Below, one piece after another: positions 1-61,523 of a DNA stretch of 64,000 nucleotides (position 1 is its first letter; each line of letters begins with the position of its first letter). A model generated the notes under the pieces. The model did not search any database. It was not told the DNA's origin and worked only from the letters and a program-made list of their open reading frames with translations. Source of the stretch: Chitinophagaceae bacterium (GTDB taxonomy: Bacteria > Bacteroidota > Bacteroidia > Chitinophagales > Chitinophagaceae); assembly GCA_965263285.1 (NCBI GenBank), contig CBDHHD010000016.1:2005859-2069858 (forward strand), written 5' to 3'. The position numbers and the translations under genes are program-made.

Positions 1-3000
1 TTTATAGTAGCAAGAGTGATGTAGAAAATAAGATATTAAGTGCAATAAGATATTCGTTTCAATTAGATAAGGAATTGCCTATACAGATAAAGTTTTTTAT
101 ACCTAAAAAGAAAGATGATATAATCGTATTAACGATAGTGATTCATCATATAGCTTTTGATGGATGGTCTGTAGAGGTGTTTCAAAAAGAAGTGTATCAG
201 GCGTATCAATTATTAATGAATCATCAACCATTAATACATACGACTACTATACAATACAAGGATTATGCTTTATGGCAAAGGATTTTTTTGCAAGGGGAAC
301 GATACGAGAAAGGATTTAGTTATTGGAAAGGGCAATTAGATGGATATAATAATAGTCATTTGCCTATTGATTTTTCTCGTCCTCTAGAAGTTAACTATGA
401 GGGAGATGCTATTGTTGCTTTGTTGTCAAAAGAAACTAGTCAAAATTTAAAAGCAGTAGCTAAAGAATTAAATGCAAGTCTATACAGTGTTTTGCTATCT
501 GGTTATTATTTGTTTTTGTCTGCCTATAGCAATGATCAAGATATTGTGGTAGGCTCGCCTTTTGCAAATAGGCACTATGCAGGTACGGAAGATATGATTG
601 GCTTTTTTGTAAATAGCTTAGCTTTGAGAGTACAAATAGATTTCAAAGATACCTTGAAAGCATATATTGAAAAGGTAAATGCTATTGTTACGCAGGGGCA
701 AAGCTATCAAGATATTCCTTTTGAGCAATTGGTAGAGGGATTACATGTAGAACGAGATACGAGTCGTCATCCTATTTTTCAAATTATGTTTGGAGTACAA
801 GATTTTGGTAGTGATGATACAACATTGTTTAAGTCTTATCAAAGTAACAGGATAAATATAATGCCAGTGAAATTTGATATAACTACGATGGTATCGGAAA
901 GAAATGATGGATTACAAATTTATTTTAACTATGCTATAGCACTCTATAAACGAGAAACAATAGAACAATTTATTAAGACATATGAATTTATTCTAACCCA
1001 GATAGTGAGAGATAGTTTAGACAATGGTTTAAACTCAGTAAGATTTATTGATGATAGAGAGTATAATTATCTTGTATATGATTACAATAAAACTGAAAAA
1101 GAATACCCTAAAGATAAAACGATACATCAGCTATTTGAAGAGCAAGTAGCAAGAACGCCGAATAATATAGCGGTGGTATTTGAGGAGAAGCAACTAACCT
1201 ACCAAGAGTTGAATAGTATAGCTAATCAATTAGCTTATTATTTGCACAACAATTACAATACTAAAGCAGATGATATTATTTGTTTGTTGTTAGAGCGAAG
1301 CGAATGGATGATTATTGCCATCTTAGGAGTGCTTAAGAGTGGAGCTGCTTATTGTCCTATCTCACCCGAGTATCCAGAAGAGCGGATATTGTTTATTTTA
1401 CACGATACTCAGCCTAAGTGTTTAATTACAAATTGCAAATTGAAAATTGAAAATGTTCAGTTTCCAATTGTTAATGTAACAGATGAACAATTTCTAAAAG
1501 AATTATATTCATTAACCATTAACCATTTACCATTAATTATTAGTCCTCATGCGTTAGCCTATATTATCTATACTTCAGGTACAACGGGAAATCCTAAGGG
1601 GGTGATGATAGAGCATCTATCTGTAATAAATCTTAGGTATGCTTTAGATAATATATTTGTGTTACAAGATAGAGAAAGGATTATTAATTTTTCGTCATAT
1701 ATTTTTGATGCATCTGTAGATCAGTTTTTTTTGTCTCTTTTAAGAGGATTTGTTCTATTTATTATATCAGAAAGATTAATACAAGATGTAGATAGTTTAA
1801 TTAGTTTTATAAACAAAAATGAGATTACTCATTTTCTTACAACGCCTTCTTATTTTGATAGTTTTCCAATAGTGCCATTACCAACATTAAATAGATTAGT
1901 TCTTGGAGGTGAGCGATTGACAAATAAAATAAAAAATAAAGCATATAAAATAATATCAGATAATACACTTTTCTTTAATAAATATGGTCCTACAGAGACT
2001 ACTGTAACGAGCCTTGTATCCATATTAAGGGATACAAGTGATTTAAATATAGGAGCTCCCATATCGAATACTTGTATATATATAGTAAATAAAGAGGGTC
2101 TTTTATTACCTCAAGGATCTATGGGCGAATTGTACATTGGAGGTGATGGTGTAGCAAGAGGCTATTTGAATAGACCTGAATTAACTGCGGAAAGATTTAT
2201 TAAGAATCCTTTTCAAACAGAAGAAGATAAAAAGAAAGATAGAAATAGCAAACTCTACAAGACAGGTGATTTGGTTAGAATGCTCCCCGATGGCAATATT
2301 GAATATATAGGGAGAAATGACTTTCAAGTGAAGATAAGGGGCTATAGAATTGAATTAGGAGAGATAGAGACTAGGATTCAAGGATTTCAGACTAGGATTG
2401 AAGGATTAAAGGATGAACAAGTTATTGAACAAGCCGTGGTGTTGGTTAATGAGAAAGGAGATAATAAATACTTAGTGGGATATTTTGTTGCTAAGGAGCA
2501 AGTGGATGTAGAAGAATTAATAAGTTACCTATCTAAGCAATTGCCTGAATACATGGTGCCTACAGTACTGGTGCAAATAGAGCAAATGCCTTTAACGGTG
2601 AATGGCAAATTGGATAGAAAGGCATTGTTAGCCATAGAATATAACCTTACTGATAGCAAAGAATACAAAGCACCTAAAAATGAATTAGAACAACAGCTAC
2701 TATCTATTTGGGAGAAATTATTAGGAAATAATAATATAGGAGTACAAGATGATTTTTTTAGGGTAGGTGGAGATAGCATTAAATCTATTCAGTTGAGTAG
2801 CAGAGTGAGAAGTGAATTAGGAAAGGAGTTAAGTGTGAAGGATGTTTTTGAACATAGAACCATCGAAAGAATGGTAGCGCATGTATTGAGTAGCCATCAA
2901 ATTAAAGTGTATCTATCTGAACAAGGCAAACTATCAGGCGAGTTGCCCTTATTGCCGATACAACAATATTTTTTTGAATTAAAACTGACTAATGAGCATC

Positions 3001-4206
3001 ATTATAATCAATCTTTTTTAATAGAGACCCCAGAATTAGAGATAGAAAAATTGAAGATAGCGATAGAAAAAGTTATTGAACAGCATGATGCATTTAGACT
3101 TGCCTATAGAAAAGATGCAGAAGGAAATATTATTCAATATTACGATAGCGAGAAAGAAGCCATACCATTAGATGTTCTTGATATTAGCGAATGGAATGTG
3201 CAAGAAGGAACTGTTGTATTTGAAGAGAAATTAAAAAAGCAATACACGAGTTGGCAAGATGGTTTTAACATCTACGAAGGGAAGACCTATCAGATATCTT
3301 ATATATGGGGATATAAAAATAAGACTGCGAGAATATTTATTGCCGCACATCATCTTATTATTGATGCAGTGAGTTGGCGTATTTTGTTGGAAGATATAGA
3401 AACAGTGTATGCAGGCAAGAAGCTATTAGCTAAACGAACGAGCTATCGCCAATGGGCAAATTTGGGGAAAGAGTACATAATAAAATATCCCAATGAATTA
3501 AGCTATTGGGAAGGTGTAGAGAATAAAGTCCAAGAAAATATAATAAAACTCTTATCAAAGACTACTATACAAGAAGAGGATTATATTACAACTATTGCAA
3601 TAGATAGAGATATAACTAGTTATTTGTTATTATCTGCGAATCAAGTATTTCACACAGAGGTAAATGATTTGTTGTTAACTGCCTTAGCAAGAGCCTTAGG
3701 AAAGTTATTTAATGAGCAGGAAATATCTATTTTATTAGAAGGTCATGGGAGAGAGTCGTTACAAGACGATATAGATATTTCTAAGACAATGGGCTGGTTT
3801 ACGAGTATTATACCTATTCATTTGCCTATACATGATGATGTACAAGAGTCAATTATTGAAGTAAAGGAGGAGTTGAGAAGAATCCCCAATAAAGGTATTG
3901 GCTATGGATTTATAAGAGGGTATAAGCATTTGCCAAAGATTAGCTTCAACTACTTGGGGGTATTTAAGAAAGAAGAGCAACAAGATTGGTTTTTAACAAA
4001 CGAATCAAGTGGGATGTCGGTATCTAATAAAAATAAAAGCAATCTTTGGTTAGATATCAATGGGGGAGTGGGTGCAAATGGTGTTTTGGGATTTTCAATA
4101 CGAGGAAGGCTGACTAAGGAATATATAGATAATCTTTCAATATATTTTAAGCAAGAAATGATTGTTATTACTAATTATATTCAGTCAGTCAATAGATCTT
4201 ATCTTA
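1..4206 (+). other. Gene 1 module 1 (window numbering): C(partial)-A-T-E
   Basis: C HHIAFDG (His codons 144-149). A motifs YTSGTTGNPKG (~1570-1602), YKTGD, GRNDFQVKIRGYRIELGEIE, NGKLDRK (~2600). T GGDS with Ser codon 2775-2777. E motifs PIQQYFF, HHLIID (His 3348-3353), EGHGRE, GWFTS, FNYLG. Manual pocket code DADLVGKVTK (unassigned). Confidence 0.85.
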
Positions 4207-7200
4207 CTACAAGTGATACGAATTATATAGTAAGCAAAGATTTGCTCAATAGATTGCAACAAGAAAATGAGATGCAAGCTATTTATGTAACCAATAGTTT
4301 GCAAGCAGGATTTATCTATCATTATTTGAGTAAGTCTGAAGGAGACGATGCGTATAAGGTTCAGTTATTATGGAAATATAAAAGCCAAGTGAATGAGGAT
4401 TATTTTATTCAGTCATGGCAACAAGCATTAGATCGTTATCCTGGGTTAAGAGTTCGGTTTAATTGGGAAGAAGAGATAGTGCAGATTATAGATAAGAAGA
4501 TAACATTAGATTATCGATTTAGAGATATTCAGCATAAGAGAAATAAAGAAAAAGCGATAGAGGGTATTCGAATAGTAGATAGGAAAGAGGACTATGATTT
4601 AGCGAAGGGTAATTTATTAAGGGTTTATTTGATACAAGTAGATAAAGAAGAGTTTGTGGTTTTATATAGTAATCACCATGCGATAAGTGATGGGTGGAGT
4701 AATCCTAATTTATTAAATTATATTCATGAAGTTTATAATAGTTTAATAAATCAAAATACACCAGTTGAATTATTAGAGGAGCAAGCCTATTTGAGGGCAC
4801 AAGAATATCTGCAAGTAAAAAGTAAAAATAATACACATGATAGATGGTGGGTAGATTATCTATCTGGTGTAGAAAGAACGATAGAAGTAAGGGGATTGAG
4901 AAAACAAGAGGCGAACGGTATTAATCTGTTAGACTACAAATTTATTCAAGAACCCATCTCAAAAGGGGTTAAGATAAGAGATAAGGAATACAGAGCTTTG
5001 TCAAGTTTTATTAAACAAGAAGGACTTACCTGGAGTAATCTCATCATGTGGTGTTGGAGCAAGGCATTAAGTGTATATGACAACAGAAATGACAATATTA
5101 TTGGCATAACGCTTTCAGGCAGAGGGTTACCAATTAATGATATAGAGCAATCGGTAGGTTTGTATATTAACACGCTACCCTTGGTAGTGCGACATGATTC
5201 TAATGAGAGCATATTAAATATATTAAAGAATATTCAGAAAGATACGGAGCAATTGAATCAGTTAACGCATACTCATTTAAGTGGTTTACATAGCAATGCT
5301 TCAGATCGTTTATTTGCAACAATGGTAGTGTATGAGAATTATCCTATACCTACAAACAAAGACAATCAAGAATCGAATACATTAATGCCTATATTTTTAT
5401 CATCAGTAGAAAAGACAGATTATCCATTGACTGTATTGGCTTATGAGAAAGATGATGTGCTTAGTTTAGGAATTAAATATGCGGGAGAGTTATTTGAGGA
5501 GAAGCAAATAGAAAGGCTATTAAAATTAATGTCTTTGTTATTACAACAAATCCCTATTTGTTACAATAAATTAGAACAAGAACTTAGATTAATAGATAAT
5601 GAAGAATACAATTATCTTGTATACGATTATAATAAAACAGAAAAAGAATACCCTAAAGATAAAACGATACATCAGCTATTTGAAGAGCAAGTAGAAAGAA
5701 CGCCGAATAATATAGCGGTGGTATTTGAGGAGAAGCAACTAACCTACCAAGAGTTGAATAGTATAGCTAATCAATTAGCTTATTATTTGCACAACAATTA
5801 CAATACTAAAGCAGATGATATTATTTGTTTGTTGTTAGAGCGAAGCGAATGGATGATTATTGCCATCTTAGGAGTGCTTAAGAGTGGAGCTGCTTATTGT
5901 CCTATCTCACCCGAGTATCCAGAAGAGCGGATATTGTTTATTTTACACGATACTCAGCCTAAGTGTTTAATTACAAATTGCAAATTGAAAATTGAAAATG
6001 TTCAGTTTCCAATTGTTAATTTAACAGATGAACAATTTCTAAAAGAATTATATTCATTAACCATTAACCATTTACCATTAATTATTAGTCCTCATGCGTT
6101 AGCCTATATTATCTATACTTCAGGTACAACGGGAAATCCTAAGGGGGTGATGATAGAGCATCTATCTGTAATAAATCTTAGGTATGCTTTAGATAATATA
6201 TTTGTGTTACAAGATAGAGAAAGGATTATTAATTTTTCGTCATATATTTTTGATGCATCTGTAGATCAGTTTTTTTTGTCTCTTTTAAGAGGATTTGTTC
6301 TATTTATTATATCAGAAAGATTAATACAAGATGTAGATAGTTTAATTAGTTTTATAAACAAAAATGAGATTACTCATTTTCTTACAACGCCTTCTTATTT
6401 TGATAGTTTTCCAATAGTGCCATTACCAACATTAAATAGATTAGTTCTTGGAGGTGAGCGATTGACAAATAAAATAAAAAATAAAGCATATAAAATAATA
6501 TCAGATAATACACTTTTCTTTAATAAATATGGTCCTACAGAGACTACTGTAACGAGCCTTGTATCCATATTAAGGGATACAAGTGATTTAAATATAGGAG
6601 CTCCCATATCGAATACTTGTATATATATAGTAAATAAAGAGGGTCTTTTATTACCTCAAGGATCTATGGGCGAATTGTACATTGGAGGTGATGGTGTAGC
6701 AAGAGGCTATTTGAATAGACCTGAATTAACTGCGGAAAGATTTATTAAGAATCCTTTTCAAACAGAAGAAGAAAAACAACAAAATAGAAATGGGCGACTA
6801 TATAAAACAGGAGACATAGTGCGAATGCTACCCGATGGCAATATTGAATATATAGGGAGAAATGACTTTCAAGTGAAGATAAGGGGCTATAGAATTGAAT
6901 TAGGAGAGATAGAGATTAGGATTCAAGGATTTCAGACTAGGATTGAAGGATTAAAGGATGAACAAGTTATTGAACAAGTCGTGGTGTTGGTTAATGAGAA
7001 AGAAGATAATAAATATTTAGTGGGTTATTTTGTGGCTAAGGAACAAGTGGATGTAGAAGAATTGAGAAGTTATCTCTCTAAGCAATTGCCTGAATATATG
7101 GTACCTACAGGATTGGTGCAAATAGAGCAAATGCCTTTAACGGTGAATGGCAAACTGGATAGAAAGGTATTATTAGCCATAGAATATAACCTTGCTGATA

Positions 7201-10200
7201 GCAAAGAATACAAAGCACCTAAAAATGAATTAGAACAACAGCTACTATCTATTTGGGAGAAATTATTAGGAAATAATAATATAGGAGTACAAGATGATTT
7301 TTTTAGGGTAGGTGGAGATAGCATTAAATCTATTCAGTTGAGTAGCAGAGTGAGAAGTGAATTAGGAAAGGAGTTAAGTGTGAAGGATATTTTTGAACAT
7401 AGAACCATCGAAAGAATGGTAGCGCATGTATTGAGTAACCATCAAATTAAAGTGTATCTATCTGAACAAGGCAAACTATCAGGCGAGTTGCCCTTATTGC
7501 CGATACAACAATATTTTTTTGAATTAAAACTGACTAATGAGCATCATTATAATCAATCTTTTTTAATAGAGACCCCAGAATTAGAGATAGAAAAATTGAA
7601 GATAGCGATAGAAAAAGTTGTTGAGCAGCATGATGCATTCAGACTTACCTATAGAAAAGATGCAGAAGGAAATATTATTCAATATTATGATAGTAAGAAA
7701 GAAGCCATACCATTAGATGTTCTTGATATTAGCGAATGGAATGTGCAAGAAGGAACTGTTGTATTTGAAGAGAAATTAAAAAGGCAATATACGAGTTGGC
7801 AAGATGGTTTTAACATCTACGAAGGGAAGACCTATCAGATATCTTATATATGGGGATATAAAAATAAGATAGCGAGAATATTTATTGCTGCACATCATCT
7901 TATTATTGATGCAGTGAGTTGGCGTATTTTGTTGGAAGATATAGAAACAGTGTATACAGGCAAGAAGCTATTAGCTAAACGAACCAGCTATCGCCAATGG
8001 GTAAATTTGGGGAAAGAGTACATAATAAAATATCCCAATGAATTAAACTATTGGGAAGGTGTAGAGAAGAAGGTGCAAGAGAATATAATAAAACTCTCAT
8101 CAAAGATTATTATACAAGAAGAGAGTTGTTTTACAACTATTGCAATAGATAGAGATATAACTAGTTATTTGTTATTATCTGCGAATCAAGTATTTCACAC
8201 AGAGGTAAATGATTTGTTGTTAACTGCCTTAGCAAGAGCCTTAGGAAAGTTATTTAATGAGCAGGAAATATCTATTTTATTAGAAGGTCATGGGAGAGAG
8301 TCGTTACAAGACGATATAGATATTTCCAAGACAATGGGCTGGTTTACGAGTATTATACCTATTCATTTGCCTATATATGATAATGTGCAAGAGTCAATTA
8401 TTGAAGTAAAGGAGGAGTTGAGAAGAATCCCCAATAAAGGTATTGGCTATGGATTTATAAAAGGGTATAAGCATTTGCCAAAGATTAGCTTCAACTACTT
8501 GGGAGTATTTAAGAAAGAAGAGCAACAAGATTGGTTTTTAACAAATGAATCAAGTGGGATGTCGGTATCTAATAAAAATAAAAGCAATCTTTGGTTAGAT
8601 ATCAATGGGGGAGTGGGTGCAAATGGTGTTTTGGGATTTTCAATACGAGGAAGGCTGACTAAGGAATATATAGATAATCTTTCAATATATTTTAAGCAAG
8701 AAATGATTGTTATTACTAATTATATTCAGTCAGTCAATAGATCTTATCTTACTACAAGTGATACGAATTATATAGTAAGCAAAGATTTGCTCAATAGATT
8801 GCAACAAGAAAATGAGATGCAAGCTATTTATGTAACCAATAGTTTGCAAGCAGGATTTATCTATCATTATTTGAGTAAGTCTGAAGGAGACGATGCGTAT
8901 AAGGTTCAGTTATTATGGAAATATAAAAGCCAAGTGAATGAGGATTATTTTATTCAGTCATGGCAACAAGCCTTAGATCGTTATCCTGGGTTAAGAGTTC
9001 GGTTTAATTGGGAAGAAGAGATAGTGCAGATTATAGATAAGAAGGTAACATTAGATTATCGTTTTAGAGATATTCAGGATAAGAGAAATAAAGAAAAAGC
9101 GATAGAGGGTATTCGAATAGAAGATAGGAAAGAGGACTATGATTTAGCGAAGGGTAATTTATTAAGGGTTTATTTGATACAAGTAGATAAAGAAGAGTTT
9201 GTGGTTTTATATAGTAATCATCATGCGATAAGTGATGGATGGAGTAATCCTAATTTATTAAATTATATTCATGAAGTTTATAATAGTTTAATAAATCAAA
9301 ATACACCAGTTGAACTATTAGAGGAGCAAGCCTATTTGAGGGCACAAGAATATCTGCAAGTAAAAAGTAAAAATAATATACATGATAAATGGTGGGTAGA
9401 TTATTTGTCTGGTGTAGAAAGAACGATAGAAGTAAGGGGATTGAGAAAACAAGAGGCGAACGGTATTAATCTGTTAGACTACAAATTTATTCAAGAACCC
9501 ATATCAAAAGGGGTTAAGATAAGAGATAAGGAATACAGAGCTTTGTCAAGTTTTATTAAACAAGAAGGACTTACCTGGAGTAATTTAATCATGTGGTGTT
9601 GGAGCAAGGCATTAAGTGTATATGACAACAGAAATGACAATATTATTGGTATAACGCTTTCAGGCAGAGGGTTACCAATTAATGATATAGAGCAATCCGT
9701 AGGCTTGTATATCAACACACTACCCTTGGTAGTGCGACATAGTTCTAATGAGAGCATATTAAATATATTAAAAAATATTCAGAAAGATACGGAGCAATTG
9801 AATCAGTTAACACATACTAATTTAAGTAGTTTACATAGTAATTCTTCAGATCGTTTATTTGCTACGATGGTAGTGTATGAGAATTATCCGATACCTACAA
9901 ACAAAGATAATCAAGAAGCGAATACATTAATGCCTATATTTTTATCTTCAGTAGAAAAGACAGATTATCCATTGACTGTATTGGCTTATGAGAAAGATGA
10001 TGTGCTTAGTTTAGGAATTAAATATGCGGGAGAGTTATTTGAGGAGAAGCAAATAGAAAGGCTATTAAAATTAATGTCTTTGTTATTACAACAAATCCCT
10101 ATTTGTTACAATAAATTAGAACAAGAACTTATACTAATAGATAATGAAGAATACAATTATCTTGTATACGATTATAATAAAACAGAAAAAGAATACCCTA

Positions 10201-13200
10201 AAGATAAAACGATACATCAGCTGTTTGAAGAGCAAGTAGCAAGAACACCGAATAATATAGCGGTGGTATTTGAGAAGAAGCAATTAACCTACCAAGAGTT
10301 GAATAGTATAGCTAATCAATTAGCAAATTATTTGCACAATAATTATCAAACTAAAGCAGACGATATTATTTGTTTGTTATTGGAGCGAAGTGAGTGGATG
10401 ATTATTTCTATTTTAGGAGTGCTTAAGAGTGGAGCTGCTTATTGTCCTATTTCTCCCGAATACCCTGAAGAGCGGATATTGTTTATTTTACAAGACACTC
10501 AACCTAAGTGCTTAATTACAAATTGCAAATTGAAAATTGAAAATGTTCAGTTTCCAATTGTTAATTTAACAGATGAACAATTTCTAAAAAAATTATATTC
10601 ATTAACCATTAACCATTTGCCATTAACTATTAGCTCTCGTTCTTTAGCGTATATTATCTATACCTCAGGAACAATAGGGAATCCTAAGGGGGTAATGGTG
10701 GAACATAGAAATGTAGTTAATCTTTTATATGCTACTGCGTATATTTTATATCCAATTAATCAAACATATCTAAGGGCAAGTGCGTTTACCCCTTATCAAT
10801 TTGATGTTTCTGTTAGTGAATTTTTAAGTCCTTTAGTACAAGGAGGCGAATTACATATTTTTAATGAATTAGCAATACAAAACATTTCATTTTTATCTCA
10901 ATATATTATAGAAAAATCTATTAATTATCTATATATCCCTCCTGTATTGCTATCACAACTTCCGCAACATATCTATCCAGAATTAAAACATATTATCTAT
11001 GCAGGAGAGCCATGTAATAGAAACATAGCTAATGATTGGTCGAAAAATTATTCGTTGTTTAATTATTATGGACCTACAGAGTCAACCATATATGCTTTGG
11101 GTAAACAAATTAATATAGATGAAGTAGAACAAATTGGGAAATCAATATACAATATAAAGATATATTTATTAAATACAAAACTTCAAGTTGCGCCAATAGG
11201 AAGCATTGTAGAATTATACATTGGAGGCGATGGTGTAGCAAGAGGATATTTGAATAGACCTGAATTAACTGCGGAACGGTTTATAAAAAACCCTTTTCAA
11301 ACAGAAGAAGATAAAAAGAAAAAACGAAATGACCGATTGTATAAGACAGGAGATTTAGTGCGAATGCTACCCGATGGCAATATTGAATATATAGGGAGGA
11401 ATGATTTTCAAGTGAAGATAAGAGGCTATCGAATTGAATTAGGGGAGATAGAGAATAGGATTCAAGGATTTCAGACTAGGATTGAAGGGTTAAAGGATGA
11501 ACAAGTTATTGAACAAGTCGTAGTATTGATTAATGAGAAAGGAGATAATAAATATTTAGTGGGGTATTTTGTGGCTAAGGAGCAAGTGGATGTAGAAGAA
11601 TTAAGAAGTTATCTCTCTAAGCAATTGCCCGAATATATGGTACCTACAGGATTGGTGCAAATAGAGCAGATGCCTTTAACGGTGAATGGCAAACTAGATA
11701 GAAAGGCATTATTAGCCATAGAATATAATCTTGCTGATAGCAATGAATATAAAGCTCCTACAAATGAATTAGAACAACAACTGCTATCTATTTGGGAGAA
11801 ATTATTAGGAAATAATAACATAGGAGTAGAAGATGATTTTTTTAGGGTAGGAGGAGATAGCATACGATCTATTCAATTGTCTAGCCAATTAAGAGCTCAT
11901 ATGGGAGTAGACATATCAGTGAAAGATATTTTTCAATATAGAACTATAGCGCAACTAAGTGAGCAGATATCTTTTAATTTTAGAGAGAAAGATGTTGTAA
12001 GAGAGACAGGTAGATTAGAGGGTGAGGTTGGACTTCTCCCTATTCAAAAATGGTTTTTTGAAAAAGATTATCCTAATCCTGATTATTTTAATCAAGCCTT
12101 TGAGATTAAGACAGAGCTTTTAAATAAGGAAGTTTTAATTCAAGCTATAGCTGACTTAGTGGATTATCACGATGCTTTTAGATTGTCGTATAAGAAAGAT
12201 GAGGCGGGGAATATTATTCAATACTATGATTCAACGAAACCGATGACTCCTGTTGTTTTTTATAATCTTACCAATTATAAAGATAAGGTATCTCAAAAGA
12301 GAATATGGTATAATCAAGGGCATCAGGAATTGGATAGATGGAAGGGTAACTTGTATAAGATATTCTATATGGAAGATGAAGAAGAAAAGAAAGCATATAT
12401 TGGTATGATTTTTCATCATTTAATAATAGATGGGGTGAGTTGGCGGATTTTATATGATGATTTATTTTTGTTATATCAGGGGAAGAGCTTGGGAGATAAG
12501 AAAACGAGCTATCGACAATGGGTGAATAGTTTACTGGAGTATAGCGCTCAGATAGATTCTTCTTGGGATGCCATATATAAGGAATGGGCAATACAATGGC
12601 AAGAACAAAATGAGGAATTTATAAGATGGTTAGACAATGAAGACAACTGTTTTGTAACAGTTAGCCTTAGTAAAGAAGAGACAGAGCAACTCATCTATCA
12701 AGGGAATAAGCCCTACCATACAGAAATTAATGATTTGTTATTGTATAGCTTAGCTGCGTCTTTTAGACAGGTATTTGGTAAAAGCGATTTGTTTATTACC
12801 TTAGAGAGTCATGGTCGCGAAGAATGGAAGGAAGAGATTAGAATAGGAAATACAATGGGATGGTTTACTACGATGCATCCTGTATGCTTATCTGTAGGAG
12901 AAGATATCTCTGAAAGTATTATAAGTATTAAAGAGCGACTTCATTCTATAGAAAGGAATGGTTTAGGATATGGTATTCGCTGGGGATATAGTCATATGCC
13001 TTGTGTTGTTTTTAATTACTTAGGGGTGATAGATGGGAAAGAGCGCCAACAATCATGGTCATTGAAAATAAAAGATACAGGCATTTGGGTAGATAGTAAA
13101 AACGTAACAATTCAAGAGAACAGATTGCAAATAGGATCGGTAGTAGAAAATGGTCAATTTAGATTTACGATGGCTGGTCGCTTAAGTAAAGAGAAGATGG

Positions 13201-31200: not shown

Positions 31201-34200
31201 CTAAGTGTTTAATTACAAATTGCAAATTGAAAATTGAAAATGTTCAGTTTCCAATTGTTAATGTAACAGATGAACAATTTCTAAAAGAATTATATTCATT
31301 TACCATTAACCATTTACCATTAACCATTAGTTCTCGTTCTTTAGCATATATTATCTATACTTCTGGTACAACGGGGAATCCTAAGGGAGTGATGATTGAA
31401 CATAGTTCAGTAATAAATCTTCAAATGGCACAGAGTAGAATATGGTTAGATTCTATAAAAGAAAATAAGACTTTTAGATTGTTATTATATGCCAACTATT
31501 CTTTTGACGCATTTGTTTTTGAATTATTTGCATCTATTTGTAATGGGCATACTTCTTATCTTATATCTTCAGATATACAACAAGACTTTTATTTATTAGC
31601 AAATTATATTCAAACTAATAATATAGTAATAGCCACTTTACCTCCAGCTATTTTACAAAAAGATGTTTTTTTGTCTCTTGATAAAATCATATTAGCAGGA
31701 GAATCACCCAATATAGATATAATAAAAAGATATTATGAACAAGAGATAGAAGTATTTAATGCGTATGGACCCACTGAAATTACAGTGTGCGCTACCATGC
31801 ATCATTATAGCATGGGTGATAACAATAATAATATAGGGAAGCCTATAGATAATAAGTCTATATATGTATTAAATAATAATCTACAGTTGTTACCCATAGG
31901 ATCTATTGGCGAATTATACATTGGAGGCGATGGAGTGGCAAGAGGATATTTGAATAGAGCTGAATTAACTGTAGAACGGTTTATAAAAAATCCTTTTCAA
32001 ACAGAAGAAGAAAAAAAGAAAAATAGAAATAGTAGGCTGTATAAAACAGGCGATTTAGTGCGAATGCTACCCGATGGCAATATTGAATATATAGGTAGAA
32101 ATGATTTTCAAGTGAAGATAAGGGGCTATAGAATTGAATTAGGGGAGATAGAGATTAGGATTCAAGGATTAAAGGATGAACAAGTTATTGAACAAGCTGT
32201 AGTATTGGTTAATGAGAAAGCGGATAATAAATATTTAGTGGTATATTTTGTGGCTAAGGAGCAAGTGGATGTAGAAGAATTAAGAAGTTATTTATCTAAG
32301 CAATTGCCTGAATATATGGTACCTACAGTATTGGTACAAATAGAACAAATGCCTTTAACGGTGAATGGTAAGTTAGATAGAAAAGCATTGTTAAATATTG
32401 AATATAAAATAATTGATGAGTCTATAGAACTGCCAAAGAACAATACGGAAGAACGATTGCTAAAGATATGGTCAAACTTATTGAAAATCTCAGAATCTGA
32501 GATAAGTGTAACGCAATCTTTTTTTAGATTAGGTGGGAATAGTTTGCTGTCTATTCGATTGGTTGGTCAATTGAATAGAGAGCTGCTAGTGCAACTAAGT
32601 GTAAAAGATATTTTTGCTTATCCTACTATTAGAGAGCTAGCGCATATCATTGAACAAAAAGATACGGGATTTGTATATCAAGATTATATGTTGACTGATA
32701 TAAAAAAGGAGGATTATAGTTTGTTTCTGTTAAATAATGTGCAACAAGCTTATTATATGGGGAGAATAGATTTGTTTGAGATAGGCAATATTTCTACAGG
32801 GGGCTATAGTGAGTTTGTTGTGGATGATTTATCCGTTGAAAATTTAGAAAAAGCTTTAAATCGTTTAGTGCTAAGACATGCGGGTTTGCGAACTGTTTTT
32901 ACTGATCAAGGTCAACAGATTTTACCAGCTGATAATTGTCATTATTCTATTCCTGTTAATAAAATAACGACAGAAGAAGCCTTGTTAGATATTAGGAACA
33001 GGCTATTAAATATGAAGGTAGATGTAGCAAGGTTTCCTATAATCGTTATAGAAGTGTCAGAGTATAAAGGTTCGTATGTTATTCATTTTATGTCTGATGC
33101 TATTATTATGGATGATAATAGTATGCGAATATTTTTTACTGAGTTGGTAAAGATTTATAATAATCTGGATATTGTATTGCCCACGCTGCATATTACATAT
33201 CATGAATATATTTTAGCGCTACAACGCATTCGTGATAGTAAATTGTTTGACAAAGCAAAAACATATTGGGAGACTAAGTTAGAGGATTATGATTTTAGCT
33301 GTAATCTTCCGATAGTAATAGAACCATCAATGGTTAAGCAGTCTACTACTAAAAGGGGTTTAAGGATAATAGAGAAAGAGACGTATGATATATTACAGGA
33401 GAAATTAGCTAAAATACAACTGAGTCCTACTTCGCTGTTATTGTCATTATATGGTAAGGTATTATGTCGTTGGTCAGGTCAAGATAAATTTAGTATTAAT
33501 TTGACTTTGTTTAATCGCTTGCCGTTACATAAAGAGGTGAATGATATATTGGGTGATTTTACAAATTTAGAGTTGTATAATTATGATGATGTAAAAAGTA
33601 GAGATATTGTAGAGCATTATTTAAAAGGAGTACAAAATGTTCTTTGGGATGATATAGAGAATAATCTATTTGATGGGATTGACTTTCAAAGATTGATAAG
33701 AGAGCGAAAACAATGGTCTATTTCCAAGGCTATAGCTCCGATTGTATTAACGAGTGTATTAGGATTTAAAGAAAAAAAAGAAGAAGGGGATGTTATTAAT
33801 TTGTTTGGGCGACAACATTATTCTATTTCAAGAACATCACAGGTTTGGATAGACAATGCGGTATATGAAGATGATAATGGCAATTTGATTCTTCGTTGGG
33901 ATTTTGTAGAGCAGTTATTTTTACCTGAAGTAATAGAGGGGATGTTGGATGAGTATGCTTATTTGATAAGGAAGATAGCAGCGATGGATATACAGAGGGA
34001 TAGATTAGAATTTTATAGATTGCCTGCTACTTATCAACATATTATTGAAAAATATAATGCTACTGCAGAAGAATATGATGTGAAGACAATTATAGACTTC
34101 TATGATAACTGTGTTATACAAGATGCATACAAGTGTAATGCTATTGCTGTGGTGGAAGGAGGGAATAATAAGCAAGCATATAAACATAGAGAAGTGGCTA

Positions 34201-37200
34201 TAGGATCTAAAAATATAGCTACTCATCTATATAAGTATTATAAAGAAGAACAAACTGTTGCTATTTTATCTGAGAAAGGCTATAATCAAGTAGTGAGTAG
34301 TCTTGGTATTATGCAATCGGGTAAAGCTTATATTCCTTTGAATATCCATTGGTCTGCGAGCAGGATACTTGAGATAATGGAGGAGAGCGGCACGAAGGTG
34401 TTATTGATTTCTAAAAAGGAATATGAGTATAAGAGACAATTGCAAGTATCAAATATAAGGCTATTGATTATTGAGGAATTATTAACAAAAGAGCGGGAGA
34501 AAAATATTCATTTGCCCATTGTATTGCTTTCAGATATAGCTTATATTATCTATACATCAGGTAGTACGGGTAAACCTAAGGGAGTGGCGATTAGCCATGA
34601 GAATATGATGAATACCATTGTGGCAGTGAATAATAGATATAAAGTTACAGAAAAGGATAGTGTATTGGCATTGTCTGAATTGAGTTTTGATTTATCTGTT
34701 TATGATATTTTTGGTTTGTTATTAGTGGGAGGGGGAATTGTTTTTGTGAATGATGAAGAGAGACAAGATCCTCATCATTGGTTATCGCTCATTGAAAAGC
34801 ATAAAATTACTTTATGGAATACAGTGCCTCAATTAGCCGAGTTATTGGTAGATGAGGCAAGGGCGAGAGAAATGAGATTGGATAGTATAAGACTATATCT
34901 GTTAAGTGGCGATTGGTTGCCTTTGCAATTACCTGATAAGATAAAACGGCAATCTAAAGATACACAAGTAATAAGTTTAGGAGGAGCAACGGAAGGGAGT
35001 ATTTGGTCAATATGGTATGAGATAGGGATAGTTGAAGGGCATTGGAAAAGCATTCCTTATGGATATCCCATGCCTAATCAGCAAATCTATATTTTAAATC
35101 ACGAATTGATTCATTCACCTGTTGGGGTTGAGGGAGATATTTATATAGGAGGCAAGGGAGTGGCGCAAGGATATTGGAATAATGAGGAGCAAACAGACAA
35201 ACAATTTAAAGAACATCATGAATTAGGGAAGATATATAAAACAGGAGATAGAGGTATTTTGCATGCAGAGGGATGGGTAGAGTTTAGAGGCAGAAAGGAT
35301 TTTCAAGTGAAGATAAGAGGGTACAGAGTGGAATTAGAGGAGATTGAAAATAAATTAAATAAATTAGAGGGAGTTAAACAATCGGCAGTGCAGTTGTTTA
35401 AAAAGAATAATAGTGAAGTGTTGGTAGGCTTTGTGGTTAGAGAGCAACTAATAACTAAAGGAGTAGATGAAAACTTTGATAAGGAAGTCTTTAAGTTAGA
35501 ACAAAGAGGAATAAGAAAGGGTTTAACAGATACCATAACCTTTAATGATAATGGTATTGATGAGGAGTTATATAGATTAACTAAGAGTTATAGGAATTTT
35601 GGAGATAGAGTTGTAGATACTTCATTGATAGACACTATTATTAGAGAAGCAAAACAGATTAAAGTAAAAACAAAAAATGTAGGAGATTCTTTGCTAACGA
35701 AAGACAAGATAGCAAGGGTTTTAACGAGATTACAGGGCAAGTCCTTATCAGACAAGATACTGCCAAAATATCTATATCCGTCTGGAGGTAGTGCATATCC
35801 AATAGAATGTTATGTAAGGGCTTCGGCATTAGGAATAAAAGGGATAGAGGAAGGTGTGTATTACTACCATCCTCTTAATAATGCACTTCAAAGAGTAGAG
35901 GATCATAGCAATAATAATCAAGATAGTATTGAGTTGATAGTGAATTGGTCGGCTATCAAGCCTTTATATGGTGATTTTGCGGATAAATTAGTATGGATAG
36001 AATTAGGACATATTTTGGAGTTGTTGTCTACCGAGTTAAATAGATTGGGTATTGCCTTTGATATTCAAATTAAGCAAGAAAACAGGGATGAATCTAAAAT
36101 GGTTTTAGCTGAGATAGTTTTAGGCGTTGATGGTAATCAAATAGAGCAATTGACAAGTGAATTGACCGCGTACTATGTGAGCAAGCGAGGGAATATATAT
36201 GAGGGTTTAATAGATTTAGATAAGTATAGTGTATTTGATAGAGCAATAGAACAAGCCAAGATATTAGAGAATGGCAAGGGTATGATTGTTGTAGAATGTG
36301 ATTCTCGTAGAGACAAGGCATGCCTTGTCTCTCAATGGATAGGTTCGGGTATAATGATTGAGAGGATAAAACAGCAATTATTGCGATATGATATAGGCGG
36401 TTGTCCTTTAGGCAGTGAGTTTGGAGAGAATGAATTGTATAGTATAGTAATAGGATATATTGCAAATGAGGAGAAGACGAAGGGAGAAAGCAAAGTGGCA
36501 GTGGATAAATTAAGTAAGGTGATAAATGATAGTGTAGGATTACCAGATTATATGTCATTGCAGGAGATAGTGTTTTTAGATAGTATGCCCTTGACGGCAA
36601 ATGGCAAGTTAGATAAGTCTCGTTTGCCTAAACCTGAAATAGAATGGCAATCGTATATAGCCCCTAATACCCAAGAGGAGCAAGAGATGGTGGAAATATG
36701 GAGTGAGATATTGAATATAGGTAAAAACAAGATAGGTATTGAGGATAGTTTTTTTAATTTGGGTGGTCATAGCATTACAGCGATACGACTGATTAGCAAG
36801 ATAAATAGTCGCTTTAATTTTGGATTGTCCTTTAAGGATTTATTTGAATATCCTACCATTAGAGGCCTGATAAAAAATAGTATAACATTAAAGCAAAGAG
36901 AGCAAGAAGGGGATTATATACCGTATCAATTAATAGATAGTAGTGTTGTTATTTCTAAAGAAGATTATGAGGATTGTTACCCAGCGGGGATGTTACAGTT
37001 AGGCATGTTTTTTGAACAGGAGAAATTAGGACATGGTACTTATCTTGCATTTCAGATACAATATTTTTCGGGAAAATGCAATAGAGAAAAATTAGAGAGA
37101 TGTCTTCAGACCATTATTAATAGACATGATATTTTAAGAACGGGGTATAGGATGTTAGAAGATGGCAATATCTATGTCATGGTGCAAAAGCGAGTGGAGG

Positions 37201-40200
37201 TAAAGGGTAAGTTGTTTTTTGTTACCGATAGTATTGAAGAGGTTAGAAAGAAAGAGATAGCATTAGCATTTAATAGAGAGATAGCTGGTTTATATAGATT
37301 CTATATTATTGAACATGCAGAAGTTTTTGTGTTATTTTTTAGTTTTCACCATGCTATTTTAGATGGGTATAGTTTAAATTTATTTATAAGGGAATTAGTT
37401 GATCTGTATCAGCATGATAATGATAAGCTATATGAAGAAGAGCAATCAAAACTATTATATGGGGAATTTATAAGAAATGAGCTATCGGCATTAAAGAATG
37501 AAGATACAAGATTGTTTTGGCAGGAATATTTAGCGGAAAGTATATTGTTGACTCCTCAATGGAATTTTAGTAAAAGCAATGGAATAAGTGTAGTAGCAGA
37601 ACGACAACAGATAGAAGGATTACGCTTAAGACAGATAGAAGATATAGCGAGTAAGTATAGCTGTACAGTTGAAGAGTTATTATTATTGTCTTATATGACT
37701 GTGTTGTCGTTATTTTTTAATGAGCGAGATATTACAATAGGGTTGGAGAAACATAATCGTATAGAGAAAGAGGGAGGGGATAGGCAATTAGGATTATTTG
37801 TTACGATGTTACCTTTCAGGTATGAGTTAAGAGATAAGGAAGCATTAGGTGCTGCATTAAGCAGATTAAGAGATAGTGTAAGAAAGGTAGTGAATCATAA
37901 GCAATATCCTTATAATGAAATCAAGCAACAATTAGGAGGCAGAGATTTGTTTGATATAGCGTATAGTTATAATGACTTTAGCCATTTTGTAGGGAATGAA
38001 AAGAGAACTCATATAAATGAGTTTTTAAATGAGGAGCTTAGCAACATAACAAGTATTCTTTTTATATGTAAAGTATATAAGTATAGTGGTGGATATGGGT
38101 TTGTTTTTAGTGGACACAGTAACAATATTGATCAAGCATATTTATCTTATTTTGTAAGATACTATAATAGTGTATTAGATCAATTATATAAAGAAGAAAG
38201 GGTAGTTTTTAAATTGATGGATGAAGACTATCAGTATTTAGTGTATGATTACAATAAAACAGAGAGAGAATATCCTAAAGATAAAACCATACATCAGCTA
38301 TTTGAGGAGCAAGTAGAAAGAACGCCGAATAATATAGCCGTGGTATTTGAGGAGAAGCAATTAACCTACCAAGAGTTGAATGACAAAGCTAATCAATTGG
38401 CAAATTATTTGCATCATAATTATCAAACTAAAGCAGATGATATTATTTGTTTGTTATTAGAACGCAGTGAATGGATGATTATTGCCATCTTAGGAGTGCT
38501 TAAGAGTGGAGCTGCTTATTGTCCTATCTCACCCGAATATTCCGAAGAGAGAATTTTATTTATTTTACAAGACACGCAACCTAAGTGTTTAATTACAAAT
38601 TGCAAATTGGAAATTGAACATGTTCAGTTTGTAATTGTTAATTTAACAAATGAACAATTTCTAAAAGAATTATATTTATTAACTATTAACCATTTATCAT
38701 TAACCATTAGCTCTCATTCCTTAGCTTATATTATTTATACCTCTGGAACAACGGGAAATCCTAAAGGAGTGATGATTGAACATGGAGGAGTTATAAATCT
38801 TATCTATGCTTTAGATAAGAGTCATTTTTGGCAAGATGAAGAAAGAATGCTTAATTTTTTCTCATATATTTTTGACCCATCAGTGGAGCAATTTTTTATA
38901 CCTCTTCTAAAAGGATTTACTCTTTTTATGATATCAGAAGAATTAATACAAGATGTAGATGGTTTAATTAGTTTTATAAATAAAAATGAAATTACACATT
39001 TTCACACGACACCTTCTTATTTTAATAGTTTGCCAATAGTGACATTGCCAACACTCAATAGATTGATTCTTGGAGGAGAGCGTGTAACAAATGAGATAAG
39101 AAATAAAGTATATAAAACAGTATTGGATAATACATTTTTTTTAAATGAGTATGGACCTACGGAGACTACTATTACTAGCCTCGTTTCTTCTTTAAATAAT
39201 ACAATAGACTTAAATATAGGATATCCCATATCGAATACTTGTATATATATATTAAATAAAGAGGATCTTTTATTACCACAAGGATCTATTGGCGAATTGT
39301 ATATTGGAGGTGATGGATTGGCAAGAGGGTATTTGAATAGAGCCGAACTAACGGAAGAAAAATTTATTAGTAATCCTTTTCAAACAGAAGAAGATAAAAA
39401 GAAAGATAGAAATAGCAAACTCTACAAGACAGGTGATTTGGTTAGAATGCTCCCCGATGGTAATATTGAATATATAGGGAGAAATGACTTTCAAGTGAAG
39501 ATAAGGGGTTACAGAATTGAATTGGGAGAGATAGAGAATAGGATTCAAGGATTTCAGACTAGGATTGAAGGATTTCAGGATTTTAGGATGATAGAACAAG
39601 CTGTCGTGTTGGTTAATAAGAAAGCAGAAAATAAATACTTAGTGGGGTATTTTGTGGCTAAGGAGCAAGTGGATGTAGAAGAATTAAGAAGTCATTTGTC
39701 TAAGCAATTGCCTGACTATATGGTGCCTACAGGGCTGGTGCAAATAGAGCGGATGCCTTTAACGGTGAATGGCAAATTGGATAGAAAGGCATTATTAGCC
39801 ATAGAATATAACCTTACTGATAGCAAAGAATATAAAGCCCCTAAAAATGAATTAGAACAACAGCTACTATCTATTTGGGAGAAATTACTGGGCAATAATA
39901 ACATAGGAGTACAAGATGATTTTTTTAGGGTAGGTGGAGATAGCATTAAATCTATTCAGTTGAGTAGCAGAGTGAGAAGTGAATTAGGAAAGGAATTAAG
40001 TGTGAAAGATGTTTTTGAACATAGAACCATTGAAAGAATGTTAGCGCATGTATTGAGTAACCATCAAATTAAAGTGTATCTATCTGAACAAGGCAAACTA
40101 TCAGGCGAGTTGTCCTTATTGCCGATACAACAATATTTTTTTGAATTAAAACTAACGAATGAACATCATTATAATCAATCTTTTTTAATAGAGACCCCAG

Positions 40201-43200
40201 AATTAGAGATAGAAAAATTGAAGATAGCGATAGAAAAAGTTGTTGAACACCATGATGCATTCAGACTTACCTATAGAAAAGATGCAGAAGGAAATATTAT
40301 TCAATATTATGATAGTAAGAAAGAAGCGATACCATTAGATGTTCTTGATATTAGCGAATGGAATGTGCAAGAAGGAACTGTTGTATTTGAAGAGAAATTA
40401 AAAAAGCAATACACGAGTTGGCAAGATAGTTTTAACATCTACGAGAGGAAGACTTATCAAATAGCTTATATTCATGGCTATAAAAATAAGACAGCGAGAA
40501 TATTTATTGCTGCACATCATCTTATTATTGATGCAGTGAGTTGGCGTATTTTGTTGGAAGATATAGAAACAGTGTATGCAGGCAAGAAGCTATTAGCTAA
40601 ACGAACCAGCTATCGCCAATGGGTAAATATAGGGAAAGATTATGTCGCACATTATCCCAATGAATTAAGTTATTGGGAAGGTGTAGAGAAGAAAGTGCAA
40701 GAGAATATTGCAAAATTATCATCAAAGATTACTATACAAGAAGAGAGCTATTTTACAATTATTACAATAGATAGAGATATAACTAATTATCTATTGCTAT
40801 CTTCGAATCAAGTATTTTATACAGAGATAAACAATTTGTTATTAACTGCCTTAGCAAGAGCCTTAGGAAAGTTATTTAATGAGCAGGAGGTATCTATTCT
40901 ATTAGAAGGTCATGGGAGAGAGTCGTTACAAGACGATATAGATATTTCTAAGACAATGGGCTGGTTTACGAGTATTATACCTATTCATTTGCCTATATAT
41001 GATAATGTGCAAGAGTCAATTATTGAAGTAAAGGAGGAGTTGAGAAGAATTCCCAATAAAGGCATTGGTTATGGATTTATAAGAGGCTATAAGCATTTGC
41101 CAAAGATTAGCTTTAACTACTTGGGAGTATTTAAGAAAGAAGAGCAACAAGATTGGTTTTTAACAAACGAATCAAGTGGGATATCGGTATCTAATAAAAA
41201 TAAAAGCAATCTTTGGTTAGATATCAATGGGGGAGTGGGTGTAAATGGTGTTTTGGTATTTTCAATACGAGGAAGGCTGACTAAGGAATATATAGATAAT
41301 CTTTCAATATATTTTAAGCAAGAAATGATTGTTATTACTAATTATATTCAGTCAGTCAATCGTTCTTATCTTACTCCAAGTGATACGCATTATATAGTAA
41401 GCAAGGACTTGCTCAATAGATTGCAACAAGAAAATGAGATACAAGCCATTTATGTAGCCAATAGTTTACAAGCAGGATTCATCTATCATTATTTGAGTAA
41501 GTCTAAAGGAGACGATGCGTATAAAGTTCAGTTATTGTGGAAATATAAAAGCCAAGTGAATGAGGATTATTTTATTCAGTCATGGCAACAAGCCTTAGAT
41601 CGTTATCCTGGGTTAAGAGTTCGGTTTAATTGGGAAGAAGAGATAGTGCAGATTATAGATAAGAAGATAACATTAGATTATCGATTTAGAGATATTCAGC
41701 ATAAGAGAAATAAAGAAAAAGCGATAGAGACTATTAGAATAGAAGATAGGAAAGAGGACTATGATTTAGCAAAGGGTAATTTATTAAGGGTTTATTTGAT
41801 AAAAGTAGATAAAGAAGAGTTTGTAGTTTTATATAGTAATCATCATGTAATCAGTGATGGATGGAGTAATCCTAATTTATTAAATTATATTCATGAAGTT
41901 TATAACAGTTTAATAAACCAAAATACACCAGTTGAACTATTAGAGGATCAAGCCTATTTGAGGGCACAAGAATATTTGCAAGTAAAAAGTAAAAAGGATA
42001 CACATGATAGATGGTGGGTAGATTATCTATCCGGTGTAGAAAGAACGATAGAAGTAAGGGGATTGAGAAAGCAAGAGGCGAACGGTATTAATCTGTTAGA
42101 CTACAAATTTATTCAAGAACCCATCTCAAAAGGGGTTAAGATAAGAGATAAGGAATACAGAGCTTTGTCAAGTTTTATTAAACAAGAAGGACTTACCTGG
42201 AGTAATTTAATCATGTGGTGTTGGAGCAAGGCATTAAGTGTATATGACAATAGGAATGAGAACATTATTGGTATAACACTTTCAGGCAGAAGCTTGCTAA
42301 TTAATGATATAGAGCAATCGGTAGGCTTGTATATCAACACACTACCCTTGGTAGTGCGACATGATTCTAATGAGAGCATATTAAATATATTAAAGAATAT
42401 TCAGAAAGATACGGAGCAATTAAATCAGTTGACACATACTAACTTAAGTAGTTTAAATAGTAATACTTTAGATCGTTTATTTGCAACAATGGTAGTGTAC
42501 GAGAATTATCCGATACCTATTAAGAAAGACAATCAAGAAGCTAATACATTAACACCTATATTTTTATCATCAGTAGAAAAGACAGATTATCCATTGACTG
42601 TATTGACTTATGAGAAAGATAGTGTGCTTAGTGTAGAAATCAAATATGCGGGCGAGTTGTTTGAGGAGAAGCAAATAGAAAGGCTATTAAAATTAATGTC
42701 TTTGCTATTGCAACAAATCCCTATTTGTTACAATAAATTAGAACAAGAACTTAGATTAATAGATAATGAAGAATACAATTATCTTGTATACGATTATAAT
42801 AAAACAGAAAAAGAATACCCCAAAGACAAAACCATACATCAGTTATTTGAGGAGCAAGTGGCACGAACGCCGAATAATATAGCGGTGATATTTGAGGATA
42901 AAAAATTAACTTATCAAGAGTTAAATGACAAAGCTAATCAGCTAGCACATTATTTGCATCACAATTATGATACTAAAGCAGACGATATTATTTGTTTATT
43001 ATTGGAGCGAAGCGAATGGATGATTATTGCTATTTTAGGAGTGCTTAAGAGTGGAGCAGCTTATTGTCCTATCTCACCCGAATATCCTAATGAGAGAGTT
43101 TTATTTATTTTACAAGATACTCAGCCTAAGTGTTTAATTACAAATTGCAGATTGAAAATTGAAAATGTTCAGTTGCCGATTGTTAATGTAATAGATGAAC

Positions 43201-61381: not shown

Positions 61382-61455
61382 CTACAAAACCATGGTATGT
61401 AATTTTATTTTTAACTTATGTAAAATATTGGTCTGATCTTCATTGAAAACATTAG
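61382..61455 (-). pseudogene. IS-B transposase gene, displaced 3' end
   Basis: Conceptually removing IS-A plus one TTAG copy joins ...IQIKKVP to NVFNEDQTNILHKLKIKLHTMVL-stop (TAG at 61384-61382) in the same frame. Confidence 0.65.
61452..61455. repeat. Target-site duplication TTAG (left)
   Basis: TTAG lies immediately outside the left IR and is repeated at 63689-63692, immediately outside the right IR. Confidence 0.7.
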
Positions 61456-61469
61456 CCCAACTTGGTAAA
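61456..61469. repeat. IS-A terminal inverted repeat (left)
   Basis: CCCAACTTGGTAAA, the exact reverse complement of 63675-63688. Confidence 0.85.
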
Positions 61470-61523
61470 CGACATTACGCAAATGATTGACAGTAAAGCG
61501 TTTGCGTGATTACAACTCGTTTT

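Follow-up and report, generated by a model that had tools for sequence, protein, structure and literature searches.

The window analysed here, a 64,000-nucleotide stretch of contig CBDHHD010000016.1, is occupied for most of its length by two genes, p1 and p2, coding for nonribosomal peptide synthetases (NRPS). The first of them, p1, which is cut at its 5' end by the window edge, very probably encodes a real, intact and selectively maintained giant type I NRPS, built from recently duplicated and reshuffled modules. Three of its modules, together with one module of p2, are predicted to form thiazoles.

An intact frame of 11 colinear modules

On the + strand, frame 3 runs without a stop codon from nt 3 to 45359, that is over 15,119 codons, and closes with a TAA at 45360-45362, the visible part of p1 (45.36 kb) having a calculated molecular weight of 1,752 kDa. 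The uninterrupted 45-kb frame of 15,119 codons that had been described in the initial annotation of this DNA is confirmed by a stop count in six frames, since each of the five remaining frames contains 768-1,898 stops over 1-45362. The longest open run in these frames is 190 codons, in line with the 168 codons previously given for the longest alternative open reading frame (ORF). At the local G+C content of 32%, the stop probability is 0.090 per codon, or ~1 stop per 11 codons, and the log10 of the probability of meeting 15,119 open codons amounts to about -616. Besides, no frameshift was found across the 61 kb of NRPS coding sequence formed by p1 and p2.

Pfam scans, run on 1,000-aa slices of the NRPS proteins, assigned to p1 11 AMP-binding (adenylation, A) domains, 11 PP-binding (carrier, T) domains, 16 condensation-family domains, one of them cut by the window edge, and 1 thioesterase (TE). 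With C standing for condensation, E for epimerisation, Cy for heterocyclisation and Ox for an oxidase insert, the order reads (C)-A-T-E, C-A-T-E, C-A-T-E, Cy-A(Ox)-T, C-A-T, Cy-A(Ox)-T, C-A-T-E, C-A-T, Cy-A(Ox)-T, C-A-T-E, C-A-T-TE, which makes a total of 11 colinear modules and 42 domains (Table 1). The 11 modules counted in the initial annotation, which had itself called for such domain calling, were thereby retrieved, and the HHIAFDG motif that it had placed at 144 does lie there, at p1 aa 48.

The catalytic motifs that were checked are preserved, with one exception in p2. The AMP-binding domains, 11 in p1 and 4 in p2, were scanned for the core motifs A3, A7, A8 and A10 and qualify as adenylation domains; the A3 motif is a variant in 4 of them, and was recognisable in both of those that were checked (TSGTMGNPK and TSGITGSPK). 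The GGxS serine is intact in all 15 T domains (11 in p1, 4 in p2), and the carrier variant GGDSI occurs exactly in the T domains that precede E domains. The C, E, Cy and TE motifs checked in the two proteins are likewise intact, with the exception of HHLISGG, lacking the Asp, in the C-like domain at the N-terminus of p2, and the TE of p1 presents an Asp at +27 from the GWSLG serine. As for NRPS in general, HHxxxDG condensation domains stand between modules and a release domain is found at the end of p1 and of p2.

The types of domains also follow one another in a regular way. The E domains, which match the epimerisation-domain structures of TycA and GrsA (E about 1e-48) as well as TIGR01720, end five p1 modules, four of which are followed by a C domain of the HH(A/V)ISDG type, and the remaining one, module 3, by the DLIILD Cy domain, a distinct Cy subtype thus placed after an E domain. 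The HH(A/V)ISDG type is always found after an E domain, and the HHAILDG type always after a Cy-A(Ox)-T module. As far as the motifs tell, this succession in p1 and p2 is the pattern of a working assembly line. No phosphopantetheinyl transferase (PPTase) gene was found within the 64-kb window.

Table 1. Positions of the NRPS genes, their modules and cassettes, and the insertion sequences of the window
Feature	Position (nt)	Strand	Remarks
NRPS gene 1 (p1)	3..45362	+	open frame, Pfam domains, molecular weight; 5' end cut by window edge
p1 module 1, C (partial)-A-T-E	3..4262	+	HHIAFDG aa 48; E motif HHLIIDA aa 1116; code DADLVGKVTK
p1 module 2, C (HHAISDG, after E domain)-A-T-E	4275..8762	+	code DADLVGKVTK
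p1 module 3, C-A-T-E (HHLIIDG)	8820..13289	+	code DVSYIAYIYK
p1 module 4, Cy (DLIILD)-A(Ox)-T	13350..17534	+	Cys code DLYNLSLIWK; Ox insert about 16338-17417
p1 module 5, C (HHAILDG)-A-T	17631..20726	+	code DAFWLGGTFK (Val-like)
p1 module 6, Cy (DAIIMD)-A(Ox)-T	20790..24953	+	Cys code DLYNLSLVWK; Ox insert about 23757-24836
p1 module 7, C-A-T-E	25050..29462	+	code DAFLLGGTFK
p1 module 8, C (HHAISDG)-A-T	29520..32648	+	code DAFTIAAVCK (Phe/Tyr-like); pocket cassette 31348-31916
p1 module 9, Cy-A(Ox)-T	32700..36872	+	Cys code; Ox insert about 35679-36758
p1 module 10, C-A-T-E	36969..41369	+	code DPEHIGEITK; pocket cassette 38796-39224
p1 module 11, C (HHVISDG)-A-T-TE	41445..45359	+	code DILNIKVIWK; TE serine in GWSLG aa 14952-14956
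NRPS gene 2 (p2)	45438..61307	+	5,289 aa, 613 kDa, 4 modules + TE; open frame, Pfam
p2 module 1 pocket cassette	47272..47843	+	~50% vs positional counterpart in p1 module 8; 93% nt vs p1 module 10 cassette
p2 module 3 pocket cassette	54744..55169	+	~50% vs positional counterpart in p1 module 10; 94% nt vs p1 module 8 cassette
IS1634-family element	61453..63691	-	candidate 17-nt terminal inverted repeats at 61453 and 63691, 94% complementary
IS1634 transposase ORF	61524-63485	-	653 aa from ATG; NF033559 231 bits vs cut-off 100
C-terminal fragment of second IS1634 transposase	63676..63933	-	85 aa; profile match; abuts first element

Predicted thiazole-forming modules and substrate codes

Three of the condensation-family domains of p1 display a DxxxxD motif (DLIILD, DAIIMD) in place of HHxxxDG, and in the PDB the Cy domains are closest to their counterparts in BmdB, EpoB and HMWP2 (E = 1e-61 to 1e-47). 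The A domains that come after them are interrupted between motifs A8 and A10 by an insert of ~340 aa, which matches the BmdC, McbC and SagB-type dehydrogenases (6e-6 with phmmer against BmdC; 4e-12 against TIGR03605, under the curated cut-off of this family). The insert was also modelled with AlphaFold on a 7-sequence alignment (pLDDT 70, pTM 0.79), and a Foldseek search with the model placed BmdC, the cyanobactin oxidase ThcOx, McbC and flavin mononucleotide (FMN) nitroreductases at the top (E = 4e-8, probability 1.0, TM-score 0.3-0.6). An N-methyltransferase identity had been considered for these 340-aa inserts and was dropped, as Pfam gave no methyltransferase match and both sequence and fold led to azoline oxidases.

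The ten-residue specificity codes were read by alignment to GrsA-PheA, for which the control code DAWTIAAIC was recovered. The code DLYNLSL(I/V)WK, which we take to be the canonical Cys code, appears in exactly the four Cy modules, three in p1 and one in p2. The combination of a Cy domain, a Cys-coded A domain and an Ox insert thus designates EpoB-type thiazole-forming modules, so that these four modules are predicted to be thiazole-forming, each with an FMN-oxidase-like insert of modelled nitroreductase fold. The codes DADLVGKVTK, DVSYIAYIYK, DPE(H/D)IGEITK and DILNIKVIWK could not be matched to a substrate. Given its domains, the visible part of p1 would assemble a peptide 11 or more residues long, five of them in the D form and three converted into thiazoles, in the order D-X, D-X, D-X, thiazole, Val, thiazole, D-Val/Leu-like, Phe/Tyr-like, thiazole, D-X, X, and this product would be set free by the TE.

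Duplicated modules and exchanged specificity cassettes

Self-comparison bears out the internal repeats reported in the initial annotation: p1 contains repeats of 4-7 kb that are 91-97% identical, at offsets from 4,545 to 15,945 nt and beyond. Seven comparisons between repeat copies, codon-aligned and treated by the Nei-Gojobori method, gave synonymous divergences (dS) of 0.06-0.29 and ratios of nonsynonymous to synonymous divergence (dN/dS) of 0.17-0.30. In addition, p1 offers 2,836 nonsense-target sites, for which a neutral divergence of 3-10% would be expected to produce 85-280 stops, and 0 are seen. Taken together, these values indicate that the copies diverged under purifying selection and are not pseudogenes. 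The open frame had initially been attributed to either strong selection or a very recent origin; the part concerning selection stands, while a recent origin alone is insufficient.

The relationship between p1 and p2 adds to this picture. The p2 gene starts 75 nt 3' of p1 and encodes, in order, C-like(HHLISGG)-A-T, Cy-A(Cys, Ox)-T, C-A-T-E and C-A-T-TE, the Ox insert of its second module lying at 51384-52463. Two cassettes aside, all of p2 beyond 47.8 kb repeats p1 31.9-45.3 kb (13.4 kb) at 97-100% identity, which designates p2 as a recent duplicate of p1 modules 8-11 that appears fused to a divergent C-like N-terminus. The two cassettes stand out as patches of low identity (roughly 50% over ~430-570 nt) between the p1 and p2 blocks. 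They are the pocket cassettes of A domains, they occupy reciprocally exchanged positions between the two four-module blocks, and they have sharp borders just after A3 and after A5. The same borders are found among the 11 non-Cys A domains, which are 83-98% identical up to A3 and 71-99% identical after A5, but only 16-32% identical between specificity classes in the A3-to-A5 cassette (~150-190 aa). Differences between p1 and p2 are moreover clustered, with a dispersion index of 6.7-7.6 against at most 1.84 in 2,000 permutations, and identical runs between them reach 477 and 792 nt; this clustering fits with mosaic recombination or gene conversion.

A scenario would be that the NRPS array was enlarged as multi-domain blocks of 4-7 kb were duplicated in tandem, that recombination homogenises the domain scaffolds and retains or swaps the specificity cassettes of ~150-190 aa, and that purifying selection preserves all the copies intact. 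By the same logic, the tetrapeptide made by p2 would contain a thiazole and be related to the p1 product, from which it would differ by the exchange of two residue positions.

The N-terminus of p2 deserves separate mention. The homologues P0177 and P0178 share its Met, and the C-like domain which it opens (45438-46700, +) is only weakly recognised by Pfam, with a score of 56 bits that covers no more than the first half of the profile, and has no sequence match in the PDB; it may serve in starter acylation or in docking, or may be inactive. Scans for promoters and terminators in the p1-p2 gap and 3' of p2 gave nothing above shuffled expectation.

The missing 5' end and the size of p1

Since the first C domain of p1 enters at position 92 of the 456 positions of the Pfam profile, p1 runs off the window edge. 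What lies beyond this edge can be approached through close relatives in the protein collection, in which the homologous C domain is internal in all six occurrences (P0176, P0177 twice, P0179, P0221 twice). An A10 motif is found 246 aa before HHIAFDG in each of the six, and the Ser motif of a T domain, 190 aa before HHIAFDG, is intact in five, the first P0221 copy being alignable but reading GVNS in place of GGxS. This A-T unit ahead of the C domain supports the presence of at least one more A-T upstream of p1, as had been proposed initially, except that this unit need not belong to the same polypeptide. It probably does, and probably as part of a full module, in which case p1 would reach about 16,200 aa or more.

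Alternatively, p1 may be nearly complete and start with its first C domain ~170-210 aa upstream, the donor acting in trans, which would make a protein of ~15,300 aa, below kolossin synthetase (KolS). Downstream subunits of multi-protein NRPS lines commonly begin with a C domain, and the more distant relatives P0182, P0231 and P0268 do carry an N-terminal C domain of the HHIAFDG type, the motif being at residue 207-213. Nevertheless, the internal position of the homologous C domain in every close-relative occurrence, with its preceding A10 and, in five of them, an intact T motif, makes such a start rather unlikely, and a p1 that continues upstream with a further A-T remains the preferred reading.

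In terms of size, KolS is encoded by 49.1 kb and has 15 modules and 1.8 MDa (PMC10589681), in agreement with the figures previously given for it. It had however been presented as the largest characterised NRPS, which no longer holds in view of SelB, the selethramide synthetase of Burkholderia sp. FERM BP-3421, reported as the largest contiguous NRPS with 59.9 kb and 2.2 MDa (PMC10589681). To pass KolS, the visible 45.36 kb of p1 would have to be extended upstream by more than 3.7 kb, and to pass SelB by more than 14.5 kb. Hence, p1 is in the top size class and among the largest bacterial NRPS, but is no record on present evidence. Fungal peptaibol synthetases are larger still.

Flanking elements, relatives and the probable host

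An IS1634-family insertion sequence (IS) lies 145 nt 3' of p2; in the protein collection, its transposase family comprises 63 members that are nearly identical, besides many fragments. Across 1-62000, the GC skew (0.16-0.43) and the AT skew are positive, and both reverse sign at 62-64 kb; as the only gene there lies on the other strand, the skew follows the coding strand in this window.

The nearest relatives of the NRPS and of the IS are largely Bacteroidota, with Chryseobacterium at 48%, and a protein-guided search of metagenome contigs gave 47% as the best NRPS match. An exact DNA search of the metagenome contigs found nothing, and the plasmid collection yielded no match either. In the genome collection, the nearest relative is JASGCP010000009.1 (L001), with 63% aa identity for the NRPS and 59% for the IS1634 transposase; this contig starts inside an NRPS gene and is labelled Phycisphaerales, a label or binning that is doubtful owing to its GC content of 34.5% and its Bacteroidota-like IS and NRPS affinities. 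The host of p1 and p2 is probably a small-genome (roughly 2.08 Mb, 32% GC), IS1634-rich bacterium, likely of the Bacteroidota. In the same line, contig L075, which comes from the same ENA sample as contig L074 described below and belongs to the organism of the probable source contig as judged by identical housekeeping proteins, encodes LptC, LptG, a PRK13320-type CoaX and a BamG equivalog scoring 259 bits (cut-off 250), BamG being what we take to be a Bacteroidota marker. A radical S-adenosylmethionine gene of the prokaryotic viperin family was also observed on this contig (L075:3149-4003, +), where it scores 231 bits for NF038283 (cut-off 180), adjoining the LptG, BamG and CoaX genes.

Further NRPS paralogues, P0174 and P0001, are present on the probable source contig, whose transposase is identical to that of the window. 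P0174, of 4,589 aa, opens within an E domain; it aligns with p1 residues 31-3999 at 82% identity and shares the C-terminal residues (...DANKEL) of p1, and P0001 is a C-A fragment of 300 aa. Shuffled versions of the NRPS, at 70-98% identity, are found on a 1,058,636-bp contig from a related genome and on several ENA contigs. On the ENA contig ERZ26695388 ctg145686 (L074), the related NRPS locus is broken into ORFs of 750, 3,292, 306 and 3,054 aa by frameshifts of 1 nt at 2250, 12235 and 13290; these frameshifts may be real decay or assembly errors at low coverage (about 9x). Variation in composition was observed as well. The Ox insert is cleanly deleted (about 290 aa) in P0176, at residues about 960, and in P0181, at residues about 2045, for which a thiazoline instead of a thiazole is therefore predicted. 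The C-terminus of P0175 resembles the start of a ketosynthase (...IAVIAMSGEF...LWEVLEKGK), thereby suggesting that the family includes hybrids of NRPS and polyketide synthase (PKS).

Assembly artefact, decaying relic or maintained synthetase

Several points weigh against reading p1 as an intact and maintained synthetase with thiazole-forming modules. The order of the repeats as given is that of the assembly, and the 5' end, together with any accessory genes (PPTase, MbtH-like protein, transporter), falls beyond the window. The Ox assignment combines weak sequence similarity, under the curated cut-off of TIGR03605, with a model of medium confidence, and six of the seven non-Cys specificity codes could not be matched to a substrate. 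Finally, the broken P0174, P0001 and L074 versions indicate that the NRPS family is not uniformly maintained.

Two further alternative explanations were weighed. Repeat-driven misassembly could have inflated or scrambled the number or the order of the modules, the true gene being shorter or consisting of several genes: repeats of 4-7 kb at 91-97% identity are difficult for short reads, and the relatives in other assemblies are ORFs of 3,000-5,000 aa. Yet the copies differ with a synonymous bias (dN/dS about 0.2) that neither collapse nor read error yields, which makes the repeats unlikely to be assembly duplicates, and the 61 kb of coding sequence are devoid of frameshifts. The junctions also keep the logic of the line, with an HHAISDG C domain after an E domain and a Cy domain together with a Cys-coded A domain and an Ox insert, which is only weak evidence because a mis-join at homologous positions would keep frame and logic too. 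Misassembly is on balance quite improbable. The array could instead have been inactivated recently and persist as a relic in a degrading genome riddled with IS, its frames being open for lack of time, as might be thought from the IS1634 copies and fragments that adjoin the cluster, the broken state of the paralogues P0174 and P0001 of the probable source genome, the frameshifts of the related contig L074 and the loss of the Ox insert in P0176 and P0181. Time has nevertheless passed, since a dS of 0.06-0.29 has already accumulated with a dN/dS of 0.17-0.30, 3% of neutral change would predict about 85 stops in p1 where none is present, and the catalytic motifs are intact in 15 modules; a relic is accordingly highly improbable, and p1 is better regarded as an intact gene under selection.

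Comparison with characterised systems

KolS (plu2670 of Photorhabdus laumondii TTO1) resembles p1 in being a single-gene giant bacterial NRPS of similar size with many E domains and a D/L-mixed peptide, but it has 15 modules and belongs to a gammaproteobacterial insect pathogen, and we know of no Cy or Ox domain in it. As proteins listed in the collection do not exceed about 8,000 aa, KolS could not appear among the relatives listed. SelB is also a contiguous giant NRPS, but it is ~14.5 kb larger than the visible frame of p1, makes a lipodepsipeptide and comes from a betaproteobacterium with a large genome; selethramide is, to our knowledge, devoid of thiazole. Neither of the two synthetases is known to be thiazole-forming.

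Regarding the thiazole modules, EpoB of the epothilone line and the BmdB-BmdC pair of the bacillamide line share with p1 and p2 a DxxxxD Cy domain, a Cys-specific A domain and an FMN-dependent oxidase of nitroreductase fold, the latter being a prediction in the present case. Schneider, Shen and Walsh reportedly described in 2003 that the EpoB oxidase is embedded in the A domain, the very placement encountered in p1 and p2. By contrast with EpoB and BmdB, four such modules are here spread over two long all-NRPS proteins, and BmdC is a separate protein to which the p1/p2 oxidase is only about 19-20% identical. Among the matches listed, the closest characterised NRPS is the bacitracin synthetase BacA (30-31% identity over about 55% of p2), which similarly has a Cy domain and E domains but which differs by its 5 modules, its Firmicutes origin, its low identity and its lack of an oxidase, so that a thiazoline and not a thiazole is formed. 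Outside the immediate family, the closest named relative is the NRPS/PKS of a Candidatus Tisiphia endosymbiont (P0182, 7,378 aa, 39% identity), whose host is, like the source considered here, a small-genome and AT-rich bacterium, intracellular in its case; it is however an alphaproteobacterium and its identity is low, the source of p1 being more likely one of the Bacteroidota.

Natural exchange of A-domain subdomains has reportedly been described by Cruesemann et al. in 2013 and by Baunach et al. in 2021, for hormaomycin, microcystin and related cases. The conserved A-domain scaffold, 84-98% identical in the present case, and the divergent cassette are common to those exchanges and to the present one, whereas the window presents two cassettes reciprocally placed in four-module blocks that are 97-100% identical, in one locus.

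Significance of the locus

Few contiguous NRPS genes exceed 45 kb, KolS and SelB being the only ones cited as comparable in the literature examined. The locus reveals no new kind of enzyme or mechanism and belongs to a known enzyme class; what makes it noteworthy is the presence of three thiazole modules in p1 and one in p2, the apparently small and IS-rich genome, and a clear record of duplication and reciprocal exchange. It constitutes an unusually clean record of how NRPS change, by duplication of blocks, homogenisation of scaffolds and exchange of specificity cassettes, and the sharp borders of these cassettes could guide NRPS engineering.

For the organism itself, p1 and p2 alone amount to about 3% of a ~2-Mb genome, and the maintenance under selection of at least 61 kb of intact NRPS sequence in such a genome suggests that an important metabolite is made, as with the toxins of defensive symbionts. 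Tentatively, the locus could be seen as a natural workshop for combinatorial NRPS assembly, set in a probably host-associated member of the Bacteroidota with a small genome, in which module blocks would recombine freely, cassettes would be exchanged reciprocally between paralogous lines, the oxidase would be gained or lost, and whole lines would be created or broken. In such a workshop, p1 would extend to the largest known thiazole-forming NRPS, and possibly to the largest bacterial NRPS polypeptide, and the devotion of more than 3% of a 2-Mb genome to these lines would point to a metabolite that may protect or manipulate the host.

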